64,000 nucleotides of DNA from an uncultured Opitutales bacterium (GTDB taxonomy: Bacteria > Verrucomicrobiota > Verrucomicrobiia > Opitutales > JAIRKQ01), in NCBI GenBank assembly GCA_964577805.1, contig CAZOAG010000001.1, forward strand, positions 27,033-91,032, read 5' to 3'. Numbering within the stretch: the first letter of the stretch is position 1; the number at the start of each line of letters is the position of its first letter. Made by a program: the position numbers. Positions 39,001 to 48,000 of the stretch are shown here, one piece after another.

Positions 39001-42000
39001 TTTTAGTTTTGATGATTTCGATACTAATAATTGTGTAAATGGGGTTATGAAATACCCAATGAACCATGCAGAAGTTAGAAGAGATTTTGTCAATTTTGAA
39101 GCGTGGAATACTCTTATTGCGACCAATAGAGCAAAGGCATTAAATCCTGCTTCTATTAATCCTGCGCAAAAACAACGACAGCTATCAAATAAGAATGTTT
39201 TTTTTGCGATGTCAGTTTTTGAGAAATTCTCAAACATAAACAGTCACCAACAATGGCATATCTTTTGAAAATGCAAGCTTTCCTGCGTTGTTTGTGGTAT
39301 TTTATTGATATATATAATTAAGATATATGCAAAATATTACGATTCGTCAAATTGTGCAGATATGTTCAACGAGAATGTCGTACAGCAGACGCTATTGCCC
39401 TTTGAGCTTCACGTAATGCCTCGTTTTTTTTCAGTGCTTCACGTTTGTCAAAAAGTTTTTTACCCTTGCAAATGGCAATTTCTAACTTTATCAATCGATG
39501 TTTTAAGTACATCCTTATTGGAAGGATTGACATTTTATCACGTTCGATTGCATTGAGAATTTTTCTTATCTCTTGTTTGTGTAAAAGAATACGACGTTGT
39601 CGTGTCGTGTTTTGTTCTGAACTGTCAGTAAATTTATATTCTGATATATGTGCGTTCAATAAAAACAAATTATGATGTTTATCTGGCATGATAAATGCGT
39701 CATTGATTTGACAATGCCCAAGCCGTATAGATTTTACTTCTGCTCCTGTTAAAACAACGCCACATTCGAATTTTTCACCGATAAAATAATCATGCGATGC
39801 TTTTTTATTACGGATCTCTGTTGTTCGAATATTTTGTTTGTTATTTGCCATTCCTTATTACATCGATGTTATAGCTTCAGTATTGTTGCGAAGATCATAC
39901 GTAATTTTTCCTTCTATGATTTCACGCAATGCAATATCTTCGTTGTCCAATTTCTCAAGGGAGTCGATCAACGGACGGGCACCGGCTTTTAATTGTTTTA
40001 CACGACGAGAAACAACATTAATGAGGATATTCGGTTCTCTTATGATAGCAGATGCAGCTTTTAAGTAATCACTTCTCATGACGAAAATCTAACAAATACG
40101 AAGGAAGTTGACGATTTTTATGATGTCAATCTTTAATATTGCTTTTTTGATGAAATTGCGCGTTGTTTGTCATGGCATGTTAACAGACAGACGAAATAAG
40201 GTGATTGTTTTTATTATGGCGTGCTTCTTGTCGGTGTTTGGGTTTGCTGGTCAATCCGCTGGCATAGCGGGGATTACCAGTGCTATTTTAGCAACAACAG
40301 GAATATCTCGTAATGTCTTTAGCATGATTTATATGATATCAATGTTGGTCGGTGGATGCCTAGTATTATTTGGTGGATCTATTGTCGATAGAATAGGGAT
40401 ACGTCGTTCTGCGATATATGTTTTGGTTTTGTGGACGATGGTATTATCGTTTATGGCATGTAGCTTTGTATTATTTCGGAATATATTTTCAGGATTTGTT
40501 GATCAGCAGTCATATTTTATTGTAGTTCTGTTTATAGGTCTGTCAACATTGCGATTTTTAGGAAAAAATATGATGCCATTGATCGGTCGTATGCAGGTAG
40601 TATCAACATTCGACACTAATAAAGGAATTGCAGTTGCAGTGAGTGGAATATGTGTGTCGATTACGACTGGTCTTGCTCCAAGCGTGATGTATGGACTATC
40701 TGGTGGTTCCCAATGGCAAGTATCTTATGGTGTTCTGAGTATTGTTAGTGTTGTCGCTGTATTATTATTTATTCGATATTTTTATCCAATTAATTGTGGG
40801 AAAAAACATCATACTGATAACAGCACAACAAATATAAGTGAGAATTTCGAAAAGGTATTTTCTAGACGATATTTATTATGCCAATTGAAGTTTTGGTGTG
40901 TAGCTAGTGTTATTATTATGAATTCATTTATTGGAGGAGGATTGGCTGTTCATATCGTTGATATTTTTGCAGAGAAAGGGGTGGCATGTGAGGTAGCAAT
41001 ACGTAGTTATTTTTATTTGAGCATTGCTACTATAATATCGCATATGGTTTTTGGCCGTATTTTTGATAAACGCGGTGTAAAGAATTGTATCATCATTATG
41101 TTGTGTTTACAGTTTTTTGGACTTACTGGCCTTGATAATGGCAATTATTTTTGTGGGCTGGCATTATATGTTATTTGTATAGGTGCAACATGGGGAGCAT
41201 ATAATGCGTTACTGACAGCAGCATGGCATAAATTATTTGGAGCACAAAATATGGGGACTATTTTGGGATTAGTATGCTTTATGTCGACGATAGTCAGTTC
41301 ATTTAGTGTTCCATTGATGAGTTTTTCTAAAAGTATTTTTGGTTCGTATTTTGTACTCATGCGATGTATTATGATAGTAATAGCATGTTTAATAATGTTC
41401 ACAGTATGGCGGTTTCCTAGTGATATTAAAAAATGTTGATGTTTCGATATATGATAATTTTTTATTGCCAATATTTGTAATTGTTAGTTGTCCTGATTTG
41501 TTGTTTGTTTGATCTTGATTTTATGTGGTATTTTGATAAAGTTTGCTATTCGAGTTTTAAAGAAGTACGTATGAGCAAATCGGTTTATGGTAGGCTAAGT
41601 AATTTGTTGGTTGTGTTAGCGATGTCATTGTTGGCAGGATGTGGCAAAGTAGATTTGTTGTCGAATTTGCCAGAGAAGGAAGCAAATGAGATCCTGTCTG
41701 TCATGCAGCAGCATAGTATAAGTGTGTCCAAAAAAGCAGGTACTGAAATGACATGGACAGTAACACTCAATGATAAGAGTAATTTTTCTAAAGCAGTGGA
41801 GATTTTAAATGCTAAGGGATATCCCAATACTCCATATGTTACAATTGGACAAGTGTTCCAAAAGAGTGGATTAGTATCATCTCCATTGGAAGAGCGTGCG
41901 CGTTATATGTATGCATTGTCAGAAGATATTTCTCAAACATTGAGCCAAATTCCTGGTGTGTTGCAATCACGTGTACATATTGTCTTGCCTGAAAAAGATG

Positions 42001-45000: not shown

Positions 45001-48000
45001 GAAATTACGTACAATTCTATCAAAATATCAAGAAGTAGAGTTGTTAGTAAGAATTGGTGAATATAAGCGAGGAGCAGATAAGGTTACAGATGAAGCGATT
45101 GACAGAATTGAAGGTGTTAATAATTTTTTAAAACAGGGATTGAGTGAAAAAGATGATTTTAATGTAACAATTGATAAAATGGCAAAAGCTGTTGGTTTGT
45201 AATGGCTAAATATATTTTGGAGGAAATGTTACGTGTTCGCAAGTTCCGAAAGGATGTTGCTGAGAAAAATTTAAAACAGGCGCAAGTATTAGTCGTTGAG
45301 GCAGAAAATAATGTAGCAAAAGCAGAAAAAGCACTTGAAGATTTTAAAGCATTCATGGAAAAAGAGTCAGAAAGATTGTATCAAAAAATCATGATGCAAA
45401 AAGTAAAGAAGGGAGCGGTGGATGAGCTACATTATGCCATAAAGATCCTCAAGAATAAATTGATTACTCATGAACAAGCATTGGAGACGGAAAAATCAAA
45501 TTTAGAAAAGGCTAAAAAAAATCTTGAGGAGAAAAAGATAGAGTTACAGGATGCTAGTAAGAATGTAGAAAAAATAGAATCACATAAAGAAGAATGGATA
45601 AAAGAGGCTAATAAGATTGATGAAATGGTAGCTGATAAAGAACTTGAAGAATTTGCAAAAAAAAGAAAATTGGATTAACCTGTTACGGGAGATAGACGAT
45701 GGCAACAAATCAAGTAAAGGACAGTAAAAACAGTAATGCACAATATGCTTCTAGTTTTGATAACGAGAAAGTAGATGCTAAAACAATATCAGAGATTAGC
45801 AAAAAAGCAGATGCTGGTGATGCTTTGTTATTTGCTAATAAGATGAAGGGCAATGGAAGTTCCGACAATGGTGCTTCTGGTGGGCGTAGCAATGAATTAT
45901 CGTTGTTTCCAAATCCGGACGGAGGTAAAGTTAGCTCAGAAGGACTGAAGGGGACGATGACTGGCAATTCTGGATTTGTGATGTCTGGCACAAGTTCTGA
46001 AGGCAACAAGGGAATGTTTTCTAGCTCAGAAGGACTGAAGGGGACGATGACTGGCAATTCTGGATTTGTGATGTCTGGCATAGGTTCTGAAGGCAACAAA
46101 GGAGCATTTTCTAGTAATGTTGGAATGAGTGTGTTCAATCCTGATATGTCTAGTTATAAATCAGTTCCTGAAAACACAGCAATTTCGCGTAATAATGATT
46201 ATGATGTTAAGAATGACGAGAATAAACAACCTGGTGCAATGGCATATGGAAATGTCATTTTGGATACCATTGCTGCGCAAAGGACATATGTAGAACCAAC
46301 AGAAGCAGCATCGACAATACGTGATATTGGTGTACAAGTAGCGAATGAGATCCTTGCAACCCGTGAGGCCTTAAATGCCAGACAGGAAGTGCGTATAATG
46401 TTGAAAGATAGTGTCTTAAAGGACACGGAGGTTTTTGTTATCAAAGATGGAAAGTCATTAAGCGTAAGTTTTGTAACAGGAGCTAGTGAATCAGCTGACA
46501 TTCTCAATCAACGCAGTGGTGATTTACGTACACAGTTGATGGAAAGATTGGATGATGTTGATTTTGTTGATATTCAAGTAGAGGACAATAGTCAATCGAA
46601 TGCAGACAATCAAAATCAAGATGGGCGTTCTCAAAATAGGTTTGGGAATGGTGATCAATCACAAGATGATGATCAATAAGCTTGTGAAAGTTGCAGCAAT
46701 TTATTGATTTGTTGAGTATTTTTAGAAGCGCTTATGAGTTGTGTGCTCATAGACGCTTTTTTATGGATGTTTGGTATTTGTGTGATAGATATTGGTCGAT
46801 TTTAGGATTTGTACGAGCCATACAATTCTATAATTGATACAATTTCTTTTGTTATTTACAAATCAATATCTGCTCCGGCTGGAGCATGGTCGGAGCCATG
46901 TATGTCAGAGAAAATAAATGCATTAGATAATAAGTGTTCTAGTATCTTGTCTACTATAACGTAATCTATGCGCCATCCAATATTGCGTTCACGGGATTTT
47001 GCGCGATATGACCACCAAGAATAACAGTTCGGTTTGTCTGGATAAAACTTTCGGAAGCTATCGATGCCAAATGTTTCGAAACAACGAGATATTCCAAAAC
47101 GTTCTTCATCTGTAAAACCAGCAGAAAAATGATTGCTGTCAGGGTTTGACAGGTCTATTTCTTTATGTGCGACGTTCATATCGCCACACAGAATTACTGG
47201 TTTTTGTTTCCTTAATTTTGTGATAAAATTCAACATTTCAACATCCCATACATGATGTCGGAATTGCAATCTTGTGAGCTCGCTGCCAGAATTAGGTGTG
47301 TATACATTGATCAGGAAAAATGATTCGTATTCTAATAAAATTACACGGCCCTCACTGACACCTGTCAGTGAGTCCATATATGTGTTGCAATCGATGGTTA
47401 ATGGTTGCTTTCTGAAAAAAACGGCGGTGCCGGAATATCCTTTCCGGACAGCATGATTATAAATAACATCATATCCTTCAAGAGTGACCGACGGAATGAC
47501 AGATTTGTCAGCCTTTATTTCTTGCAAACACAAAATGTCAGGGTTCATGTCTTCAATAGAAGAACAAAAACCCTTCTTCAAAACAGCACGTATGCCATTG
47601 ACATTCCACGAAACTATTCTCATGACACAAATCGAACTACATTATTGTTGGTAATGTACGTTCTGATATTGCTTTTTCTAAAAATGATATTGCGTCATTG
47701 ATCGAATGTGCGCCATTAAATTCTGGATGTATGCGCGAGCGGACAGAGACTGTGCCATTATCGCATTCTTTCTGTCCAATGATGAATAAATGCGGGACCT
47801 TATCGATTTCTGCATGTCTGATTTTTGCATTAAGCTTATCTGACCGAGAATCGATTGTCGTGCGAATATGGTGTGATTTCAAATTATCACAAATGTTTTC
47901 TGCATTGGAAATCAATGAATCATTTATTGGAAGAATACGGACTTGCTCCGGTGCTAACCATGTTGGGAAATCACCACCAAAATGTTCTATTAATAATCCG

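Follow-up and report, generated by a model that had tools for sequence, protein, structure and literature searches.

How do genes of a protein-injection machine come to stand among the housekeeping genes of an uncultured verrucomicrobial bacterium, and do they still belong to a complete system? This question is raised by a group of six genes in a stretch of 64,000 nucleotides (the window) from contig CAZOAG010000001.1 of an uncultured Opitutales bacterium. Positions 41571-46679 of the window, on the plus strand, hold sctJ-K-L-N-O-P of a non-flagellar type III secretion system (NF-T3SS, or T3SS for short), as six intact and co-directional open reading frames (ORFs). Very probably, these genes constitute a single injectisome operon of an AT-rich (36% GC) member of the Puniceicoccales (class Opitutia), its system belonging to a clade with members from the Planctomycetes-Verrucomicrobia-Chlamydiae (PVC) superphylum and the Desulfovibrionales, and its gene cluster having been fragmented independently.

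The sctJ-K-L-N-O-P operon

The six ORFs are tightly packed, with intergenic gaps from sctJ to sctP of 24, 14, 15, -1 and 20 nt, where the value of -1 corresponds to a TAATG overlap between sctN and sctO. The short gaps and this overlap suggest that the genes would be transcribed together and translationally coupled, in a transcript ending at a terminator hairpin. A hairpin resembling an intrinsic terminator is located 3' of sctP at 46724-46763 (plus strand), marking the end of the operon; its stem of about 15 bp contains one internal mismatch and leads into UUUUUU. Its folding energy is -17.4 kcal/mol (z = -3.6), and 0 of 200 shuffled sequences were equally stable. A simple consensus terminator scan missed this structure because of the internal mismatch, and it was folding that confirmed it. 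The operon is preceded by lgt, a major facilitator superfamily (MFS) gene, smpB, rpoZ, and a second MFS gene, and followed by xth (convergent), thrS, and an orphan gene. The packing, the TAATG junction, the hairpin with its T-run, and the flanks (rpoZ, smpB and MFS genes on one side, xth and thrS on the other) had all been described in a first-pass annotation of this DNA, and each of them was confirmed. Regarding the promoter, no sigma-54 site (TGGCAC-N5-TTGC, with up to two mismatches) was found 5' of sctJ or of sctQ-N, the first gene of a second T3SS fragment described below, and a sigma-70 pattern scan returned matches at chance level, with no convincing promoter. The gene for sigma-54, rpoN, is located at 30521-31798, between both T3SS fragments.

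Family assignments were made with Pfam and NCBIfam models against their curated cut-offs, and the six identities proposed in the first pass (J, K, L, N, O and P) all exceed these thresholds. SctJ (41571-42449, plus strand like the rest; 292 aa), the inner-membrane ring lipoprotein, scores 212 bits against TIGR02544 (cut-off 162) and matches PF01514, whereas the FliF model gives 52 bits (cut-off 130). Its translation shows a signal peptide with the lipobox LLAG/C and a single C-terminal transmembrane helix, and the first pass had noted both lipobox and helix; an alternative upstream ATG at 41523 would yield a 308-aa product, as called in other strains. The weakest assignment of the six is that of the sorting-platform adaptor SctK (42474-43133; 219 aa), with 31 bits for PF06578 YscK (cut-off 22). 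It is also indicated by the place of the gene between sctJ and sctL and by a profile of seven orthologues, whose sole significant match in the PDB is PscK from Pseudomonas aeruginosa (6UIE, E 3.3e-6). An AlphaFold2 model of SctK from the single sequence had a mean predicted local distance difference test value of 36 and was unusable.

SctL (43148-43837; 229 aa), the stator joining the ATPase to the sorting platform, reaches 190 bits for NF005392 (cut-off 159) and 119 bits for TIGR02499, and matches PF06635 and PF02108. The T3SS ATPase SctN (43853-45202; 449 aa) scores 747 bits for NF005391 (cut-off 657) and 656 for TIGR02546 (cut-off 605), with FliI clade 1-3 models at 503-596, each below its own cut-off. 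The Walker motifs pointed out earlier, namely the Walker A motif AAGGGKST and the Walker B motif, can be read in its translation. SctO (45202-45678; 158 aa), a coiled-coil central stalk, matches PF16789 and, with 72 bits, PF07321 YscO (cut-off 28.8). The last product, SctP (45699-46679; 326 aa), the needle-length ruler and substrate-specificity switch, matches PF09483 HpaP with 27.6 bits (cut-off 23.8) in its C-terminal domain, at residues 222-294. The operon thus contains the injectisome-specific families YscK, YscO and HpaP, to which YscX and TyeA are added by the sctV locus presented below.

Taking the roles from homology to the studied Ysc/Psc injectisomes, SctJ would form the inner-membrane ring together with SctD, and SctK, SctQ and SctL would build the cytoplasmic pods that hold the SctN hexamer beneath the SctV gate. 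SctN would be the ATPase that unfolds and loads substrates, with SctO as a stalk from SctN to the export gate, and SctP would be secreted as the needle grows, measuring its length and flipping SctU to later substrates. In these terms, the operon would supply the inner ring, most of the cytoplasmic ATPase/sorting complex, and the ruler.

The ruler varies between strains. In an alignment of six strain variants of SctP, the N-terminus and the C-terminal domain, which is of T3S4 type, are invariant, and the middle consists of variable repeats. The sctP gene of the window carries a tandem repeat at 45932-46114 (plus strand; 90 bp, 2 copies, 93% matches by Tandem Repeats Finder), and the corresponding 30-aa unit is present in 0, 1 or 2 copies among strains that are otherwise 97-99% identical. 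Product length ranges from 276 to 326 aa across strains, with 288 aa in the relative L003 and 522 aa in L002, and strain L082 has an entirely different middle segment. This architecture is like that of YscP, which has a repeat-containing middle and a T3S4 C-terminus, and the length variation predicts that needle length would differ between strains.

Other pieces of the system

The first-pass annotation named no T3SS gene in the 64 kb besides these six. Its statement that the secretin, SctD, SctV and SctU are absent from the window stood, but it had missed a split sctQ and sctR, found at 17754-20222. These genes lie 22 kb upstream of the sctJ operon, between a 3'-5' exonuclease gene and tsaB, all on the plus strand. 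The N-terminal part of the cytoplasmic-ring protein SctQ is encoded by sctQ-N (17754-18542; 262 aa), which has no Pfam or NCBIfam match. It aligns (BLASTP E 3e-11) to residues 40-235 of a 342-aa SctQ encoded by a single gene on metagenomic contig L112, and this SctQ passes TIGR02551 with 127 bits (cut-off 101). The second part, sctQ-C (18565-19566; 333 aa), opens with a stretch of about 250 residues that is almost entirely Asp/Glu-rich low-complexity sequence and ends in a SpoA (FliN-like) domain, with 54.6 bits for PF01052 FliMN_C at residues 264-333 and 66.8 bits for TIGR02551. The export-apparatus subunit SctR (19569-20222; 217 aa) matches PF00813 and scores 279 bits for TIGR01102 yscR (cut-off 209) and 298 bits for NF009438, with the FliP model below its cut-off. 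The gene 3' of sctR is tsaB, not sctS.

A scan of Joint Genome Institute metagenomes with the SctR of the window returned one close relative, the 2.4-kb contig L106 of an AT-rich relative whose SctR is 85% identical, all the others being at most 62% identical. In L106 SctQ is likewise split, and its C-terminal ORF (753-1508) bears an acidic arm, of different sequence. Since the two-ORF arrangement recurs there, the split is conserved and does not represent a sequencing frameshift. Division of SctQ is not new in itself, as it is split into HrcQA and HrcQB in Pseudomonas syringae, and SctQ-C is translated internally in Yersinia and Salmonella. In all of these the C-terminal SpoA domain exists as its own polypeptide, as in the window; contrary to them, the ORF of the window bears the N-terminal Asp/Glu-rich extension of about 250 aa. 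To our knowledge, no other SctQ has a polyacidic arm like this one.

A third piece was reached through the SctV of a relative and then a Puniceicoccales SctV, leading to the cluster member P0212, an SctV of 692 aa. P0212 occurs in 48 blocks of assemblies derived from the Sequence Read Archive (SRA), compared with 50 for the SctN of the window, and is present in SRR33036534 and SRR25400532, runs that also carry the exact SctN of the window. Its contigs have a GC content of 0.361 and a GC skew of 0.204 (0.361 and 0.203 in the window), and their codon frequencies correlate with those of the window genes at r = 0.958, the contigs of other taxa giving 0.10-0.52. Because of the shared samples and the matching GC, skew and codon usage, we attribute the sctV locus to the window organism.

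The order of this locus (contigs L101-L105) is a 298-aa ORF, a TyeA-domain protein, a CesT-like chaperone, YscX, a tetratricopeptide repeat (TPR) protein resembling YscY, and SctV. The 298-aa ORF has no family match and, by its position, is a putative SctW. The whole represents a Ysc-type gatekeeper/export-gate block (yopN-tyeA-sycN-yscX-yscY-yscV), isolated among housekeeping genes: glgB and a ferredoxin gene form one flank, and rho, cmk, pitA and priA the opposite flank. In other Puniceicoccales-like contigs, of 50-53% GC, sctV is isolated too (L095:8391-13483 and L094:3079-5513), with different neighbours: mgtE and alaS in one case, a SulP-family transporter gene and mutS in the other. Fragmentation patterns therefore differ between sublineages. 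L095 has a TyeA protein without a YopN-like partner nearby. A 454-aa ORF following sctV in L095 was considered as a candidate SctD and dropped, as it showed no similarity to the Kiritimatiellia SctD and no family match.

With these pieces, the sorting platform SctK-SctQ-SctL is complete in the window, SctQ being split, and the export apparatus so far comprises SctR in the window and SctV on the contigs ascribed to this organism. Every ORF from 18 reference T3SS loci was compared by blastp with all window ORFs of at least 50 aa, and the intergenic ORFs were read, which disclosed only rpmB, atpE and similar genes. The Pfam scan covered 42 of the approximately 50 non-shadow window ORFs of at least 150 aa, with precomputed families for four more, leaving a few (151-277 aa) unscanned. 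Within this scope, the 64-kb window contains no SctS, SctT, SctU, SctV, secretin (SctC) or SctD; neither the blastp comparison nor the intergenic ORFs revealed a needle (SctF), an inner rod (SctI), an SctD or translocators; and no flagellar rod, hook, filament or motor genes appeared among the scanned and intergenic ORFs. Beyond the window, the C-terminal 282 aa of a Kiritimatiellia SctC were searched against a collection of 5.8 billion proteins, which gave 105 near relatives, none of them from Puniceicoccales. This search reached only Kiritimatiellia-like proteins and is therefore uninformative on absence.

Relatives, ancestral gene order and setting

Which family the system belongs to was addressed with a neighbour-joining tree of SctN (39 sequences, 336 columns, 200 bootstraps). 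The window groups with four Puniceicoccales metagenome-assembled genomes (MAGs) at 100%, and with six at 94%. This Puniceicoccales group joins sequences from Verrucomicrobia, Kiritimatiellia, Victivallales and Desulfovibrionales at 76%, next to a Ysc group formed by YscN, the sequence of PDB entry 9e58, Vibrio and Kangiellaceae, so the window is outside the Ysc clade proper. The single chlamydial sequence (L020) and all FliI branch elsewhere, the former outside the clade that unites the window with Ysc, Rhizobiales and Hrp2. Among PDB entries, SctN scores highest with 9e58 (a T3SS ATPase; 500 bits), whose chain is almost identical to Yersinia YscN in the tree, followed by EscN (424), SsaN (405), FliI (344) and Spa47 (330). 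Compared with plasmid records, it is 67% identical to the ATPase of a Nitratidesulfovibrio vulgaris plasmid, 62-65% to AscN and YscN, and 43-60% to rhizobial, Ralstonia and Shigella ATPases and FliI; identity is 67-73% to Desulfovibrionales and Kiritimatiellia and 60% to Chlamydiae. We place the system, with moderate confidence, in a PVC/Desulfovibrionales clade adjacent to Ysc.

The suggestion of the first pass that this T3SS family may be uncharacterised is not borne out. Besides the position of SctN in this clade by Ysc, NF-T3SS have been known in Verrucomicrobia since at least 2012 (PMC3459982; PMC3681970), and a 'Desulfo' NF-T3SS group has already been described (PMC3459982). SctV is named in NCBI annotation in dozens of Puniceicoccales MAGs; our literature search found no paper treating Puniceicoccales together with type III secretion.

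The first pass also considered the direct joining of J-K-L to N-O-P to be a rearrangement, and here the relatives show the opposite. In the D. vulgaris plasmid annotated by the Prokaryotic Genome Annotation Pipeline, the genes run as sctC-sctD-...-needle-...-sctJ-K-L-(x)-sctN-O-P-Q-R in one string. The Kiritimatiellia contig L008 has putative C, W, V and D, followed by J-K-L-N-O-P-Q-R-S-T-U, where the genes were labelled by their resemblance to those of the annotated plasmid and of Vibrio T3SS1 loci, and SctD by a sub-threshold TIGR02500 match. The order in L112 is J-K-L-N-O-P-Q-R-S-T-U. As J-K-L-N-O-P are contiguous in all three, the contiguity of sctL and sctN is ancestral for the family. 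The ancestral layout was one contiguous cluster, C..W..V-D..J-K-L-N-O-P-Q-R-S-T-U, and the derived feature of the termite Puniceicoccales lineage is its fragmentation, with a break after sctP. The cluster now exists as at least three pieces, each surrounded by housekeeping genes: sctQ-N, sctQ-C and sctR; sctJ-K-L-N-O-P; and putative sctW, tyeA, the chaperone gene, yscX, yscY and sctV. In this respect the first pass was right in describing a dispersed system, with pieces flanked by such genes. Since intermediate PVC relatives are unfragmented, the fragmentation is independent of that in Chlamydiae.

Among known systems, those of the Desulfovibrionales (pDsulf-L2-1 of Nitratidesulfovibrio vulgaris; 'Desulfo' group, Abby & Rocha 2012) share the 76% clade, the SctN identity of 67%, and the order sctJ-K-L-(x)-N-O-P up to sctP, and neither the plasmid nor the window has sctS after sctR. 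However, the former is one plasmid-borne cluster following sctC-sctD-needle, whereas in the window the genes are chromosomal and cut after sctP, with Q-R 22 kb off and sctQ split. The other PVC clusters (Kiritimatiellia, Victivallales, and rumen/gut Verrucomicrobia; SctN 67-73% and SctV 57% identical) share the component set, including a YopN/TyeA-type gatekeeper upstream of sctV, but keep it in one contiguous cluster of at least about 17 kb (putative C-W-V-D-...-J-to-U), contrary to the fragmented lineage of the window. An experimentally studied verrucomicrobial T3SS is that of Verrucomicrobium spinosum (PMC3681970).

The closest experimentally characterised family is Ysc/Psc/Asc (Yersinia pYV, P. 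aeruginosa, Aeromonas, Vibrio T3SS1), with SctN 62-65% identical, and the window organism has Ysc-like proteins of the YscK, YscO, YscX and TyeA families together with a YscY-like TPR protein. Ysc systems have two operons within a single virulence locus, one closing with sctJ-K-L and one made up of sctN-U, and on pYV yopN is the direct upstream neighbour of yscN, whereas in the window sctL and sctN are 15 nt apart in one operon. The chlamydial T3SS loci are broken at other points, as J-L-R-S-T and N-O-P-Q-C. Even though the chlamydial system belongs to a host-dependent bacterium of the same superphylum and is also scattered over several loci among housekeeping genes (PMC3459982), it is not the nearest by SctN, with its 60% identity and separate branch.

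In a species-level collection, the nearest genomes are Puniceicoccales (Verrucomicrobiota) MAGs, with SctN identities of 86-87% (L001-L004) and 73% (L005 and L006). L002 and L003 are syntenic with the window over smpB-rpoZ-MFS-sctJ-K-L-N-O-P and have no sctQ or sctR within 8-10 kb 3'. L005 and L006 also have smpB and rpoZ upstream, with clpP, skp, pgsA and pgpA ahead of the operon. The MAG prefixes Cc175, Cd354, Nc350, Ncb351 and Roe453 denote hindgut metagenomes of dry-wood termites (Kalotermitidae), namely Cryptotermes cavifrons, C. dudleyi, Neotermes castaneus, N. cubanus and Roisinitermes ebogoensis (PMC11257099 supplement). The exact SctN of the window occurs in about 50 blocks of SRA-derived assemblies, with strains diverging by 1-3% in DNA. 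At 36% GC, the window organism is the most AT-rich of the group, its relatives having 41-51%. The first pass was right in its view of an AT-rich and probably host-associated bacterium. Among the Opitutales of termite guts are endosymbionts of flagellates, some of them intranuclear, known as the 'Nucleococcus cluster' (PMC8204192; PMC11257099), and the window organism may be a member of it.

The rest of the window consists mostly of housekeeping genes: serS, proS, gatB, lptD, miaA, atpB/F, recA, rpoN, leuS, lptF/G, tmk and holB by Pfam, plus secA and mnmA by precomputed families. An extension of about 2.5 kb at its 3' end again has only housekeeping genes (nitroreductase, ferritin), and no sequence was gained at the 5' end. 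At 13307-15422, an AlgH-like gene comes after atpB, atpE, atpF and a 132-aa ORF, and the F1 genes (alpha, gamma, beta and epsilon) do not follow, so the atp operon is apparently broken up too. GC skew, in 2-kb steps, is +0.15 to +0.34 over plus-strand genes and about 0 or slightly negative over minus-strand genes (22-24, 38-40, 48-50 and 52-54 kb). The skew thus follows the coding strand in addition to any replication strand.

Some neighbours of the operon differ between strains. The product of lgt (37181-38020) is called as 279 aa in the window and L084 and as 224 aa in L081, L082, L083 and L086; the DNA alignment has a 2-base gap in L082, L083 and L086, and L081 aligns gap-free. The shorter call in these four strains may reflect a start shift or a frameshift in this essential lipoprotein-maturation gene. 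In strain L083, a gene for a 437-aa leucine-rich-repeat protein (L083:11962-13275) stands between sctP and xth and is absent from the window and the other strains; leucine-rich-repeat proteins are a common class of T3SS effectors. Adjoining thrS, a 361-aa orphan (49594-50679) is kept in all strains with ratios of non-synonymous to synonymous substitution rates (dN/dS) of 0.07-0.2, and a set of 1.84 billion representative proteins contains only 46 relatives of it. The N-termini vary between relatives, and the conserved C-terminal domain (about 240 aa) has an invariant G-x-S-x-G, Asp and His, as a divergent alpha/beta hydrolase. This orphan beside thrS is a possible effector. A 666-aa ORF (55017-57017) has no Pfam or NCBIfam match and is also found on the contigs of other strains.

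Maintenance, rival explanations and meaning

Are the genes still maintained? The T3SS genes have a GC content at third codon positions (GC3) of 0.276, the housekeeping genes of the window one of 0.278, and their relative synonymous codon usage correlates at r = 0.94; with matching GC3 and codon preferences, the T3SS genes are therefore long-term residents. The 13-17 changes that separate strains in SctN are all synonymous (0 non-synonymous). dN/dS is below 0.1 for SctL, SctO and the C-terminal domain of SctP, and mostly 0.14-0.35 for SctJ and SctK, comparable with rpoZ and the MFS genes next to them. Relaxation is confined to the N-terminal and middle part of SctP, at 0.4-0.5. Such purifying selection argues against a decaying remnant.

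The similarity of the two kinds of export system raises the question whether flagellar genes (FliF, FliH, FliI, FliJ and FliK) have been misread as those of an injectisome. The systems are homologous, and the FliH, FliI and Flg_hook models do give secondary matches. Nevertheless, SctN, SctJ and SctR score above the equivalog thresholds of the injectisome models and below those of the flagellar models, SctJ is a lipoprotein of 292 aa and not an FliF, which would have about 550 aa, the YscK, YscO, HpaP, YscX and TyeA families are injectisome-specific, and the scanned ORFs include no flagellar rod, hook or motor genes. With SctN outside FliI in the tree and FliI models below cut-off, these tests refute the flagellar explanation, to which we give practically no credence, and the first pass was right in preferring an injectisome. 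The outcomes that the first pass had named as refuting its reading did not occur: the ATPase is not a FliI, profile models recognise SctJ, SctL and SctN, and at least SctV, SctR and SctQ exist elsewhere. It is highly improbable, if less drastically so, that the genes are a pathogenicity-island fragment recently transferred into a housekeeping region. Mobility is common among T3SS clusters, a Desulfovibrio plasmid carries the nearest relatives outside PVC, and the window has a tyrosine recombinase gene at 25860-26753; yet no mobile-element genes adjoin either T3SS piece of the window, and the genes do not differ from their flanks in GC, GC3 or codon usage. Moreover, the smpB-rpoZ-(MFS)-sctJ context is common to Puniceicoccales MAGs of five termite species with 41-51% GC, so any acquisition predates that radiation. 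In favour of the inheritance of a chlamydia-type T3SS, already scattered in a common PVC ancestor, Verrucomicrobiota and Chlamydiota both belong to PVC and both have T3SS genes scattered among housekeeping genes (PMC3459982). We consider this inheritance very unlikely, given that the sole chlamydial SctN in the tree falls outside the window/Ysc/Rhizobiales/Hrp2 clade, at 60% identity against 67-73%, and that non-reduced PVC relatives (Kiritimatiellia, Verrucomicrobia and Victivallales) keep a contiguous cluster, from which it follows that the scattering here is secondary.

The rival that deserves most weight, though still an unlikely one, is a decaying remnant, in which the secretin, the needle and part of the export apparatus have been lost and the J-P operon is a leftover or has been co-opted for a role other than injection. 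No C, D, F, S, T or U gene turned up in the window, and a single remote search yielded no secretin of this organism; sctQ is split; and the genome looks reduced, judging by its 36% GC against 41-51% in relatives. However, all nine T3SS ORFs of the window are intact, the purifying selection on them equals or exceeds that on housekeeping genes, and the operon and its genomic position are kept across species, down to an SctN identity of 73%. The sctQ split is shared with a second species, L106, which rules out a fresh frameshift, an intact sctV locus with gatekeeper and chaperone genes is present in the same samples, and the unfound genes reflect the limits of searches that were not genome-wide. 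Certain points do weigh against the reading of the six genes as the operon of a fragmented PVC/Desulfovibrionales injectisome. The secretin, SctD, needle and rod, SctS, SctT and SctU of this organism were not found in our searches, and the sctV contigs are assigned to its genome by shared samples and composition, with no physical link. The SctN tree is a distance tree of a single protein whose deep nodes have low support (43-53%), and no rRNA gene is present in the window. Finally, all the evidence for the system is sequence, which cannot show expression or secretion.

For the injectisome operon itself, the balance of this evidence remains strongly favourable. Beyond it, we infer that a complete needle would be assembled and that the system would act on a eukaryotic, probably protist, host. 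A more specific picture, of a complete and working injectisome in a genome-reduced verrucomicrobial endosymbiont of termite-gut flagellates, possibly from the 'Nucleococcus cluster', is advanced here only tentatively, and we would sooner doubt it than rely on it. If true, it would represent a second PVC lineage, independent of Chlamydiae, in which intracellular life goes together with a T3SS shattered into small operons, and it would add lineage-specific changes of the machine, such as a split SctQ armed with a polyacidic stretch and a ruler with a strain-variable number of repeats.

Understanding of the T3SS mechanism is left unchanged by these results, and their value is organismal and evolutionary rather than mechanistic, because NCBI annotation already names such genes in Puniceicoccales MAGs. 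Type III secretion is a classic bacterial tool for manipulating eukaryotic cells, and a T3SS that is intact and under selection suggests that Puniceicoccales inject proteins into a host, most plausibly termite gut flagellates. As a second independent PVC case of the break-up of a T3SS cluster, this lineage bears on why clustering is lost in host-restricted bacteria.

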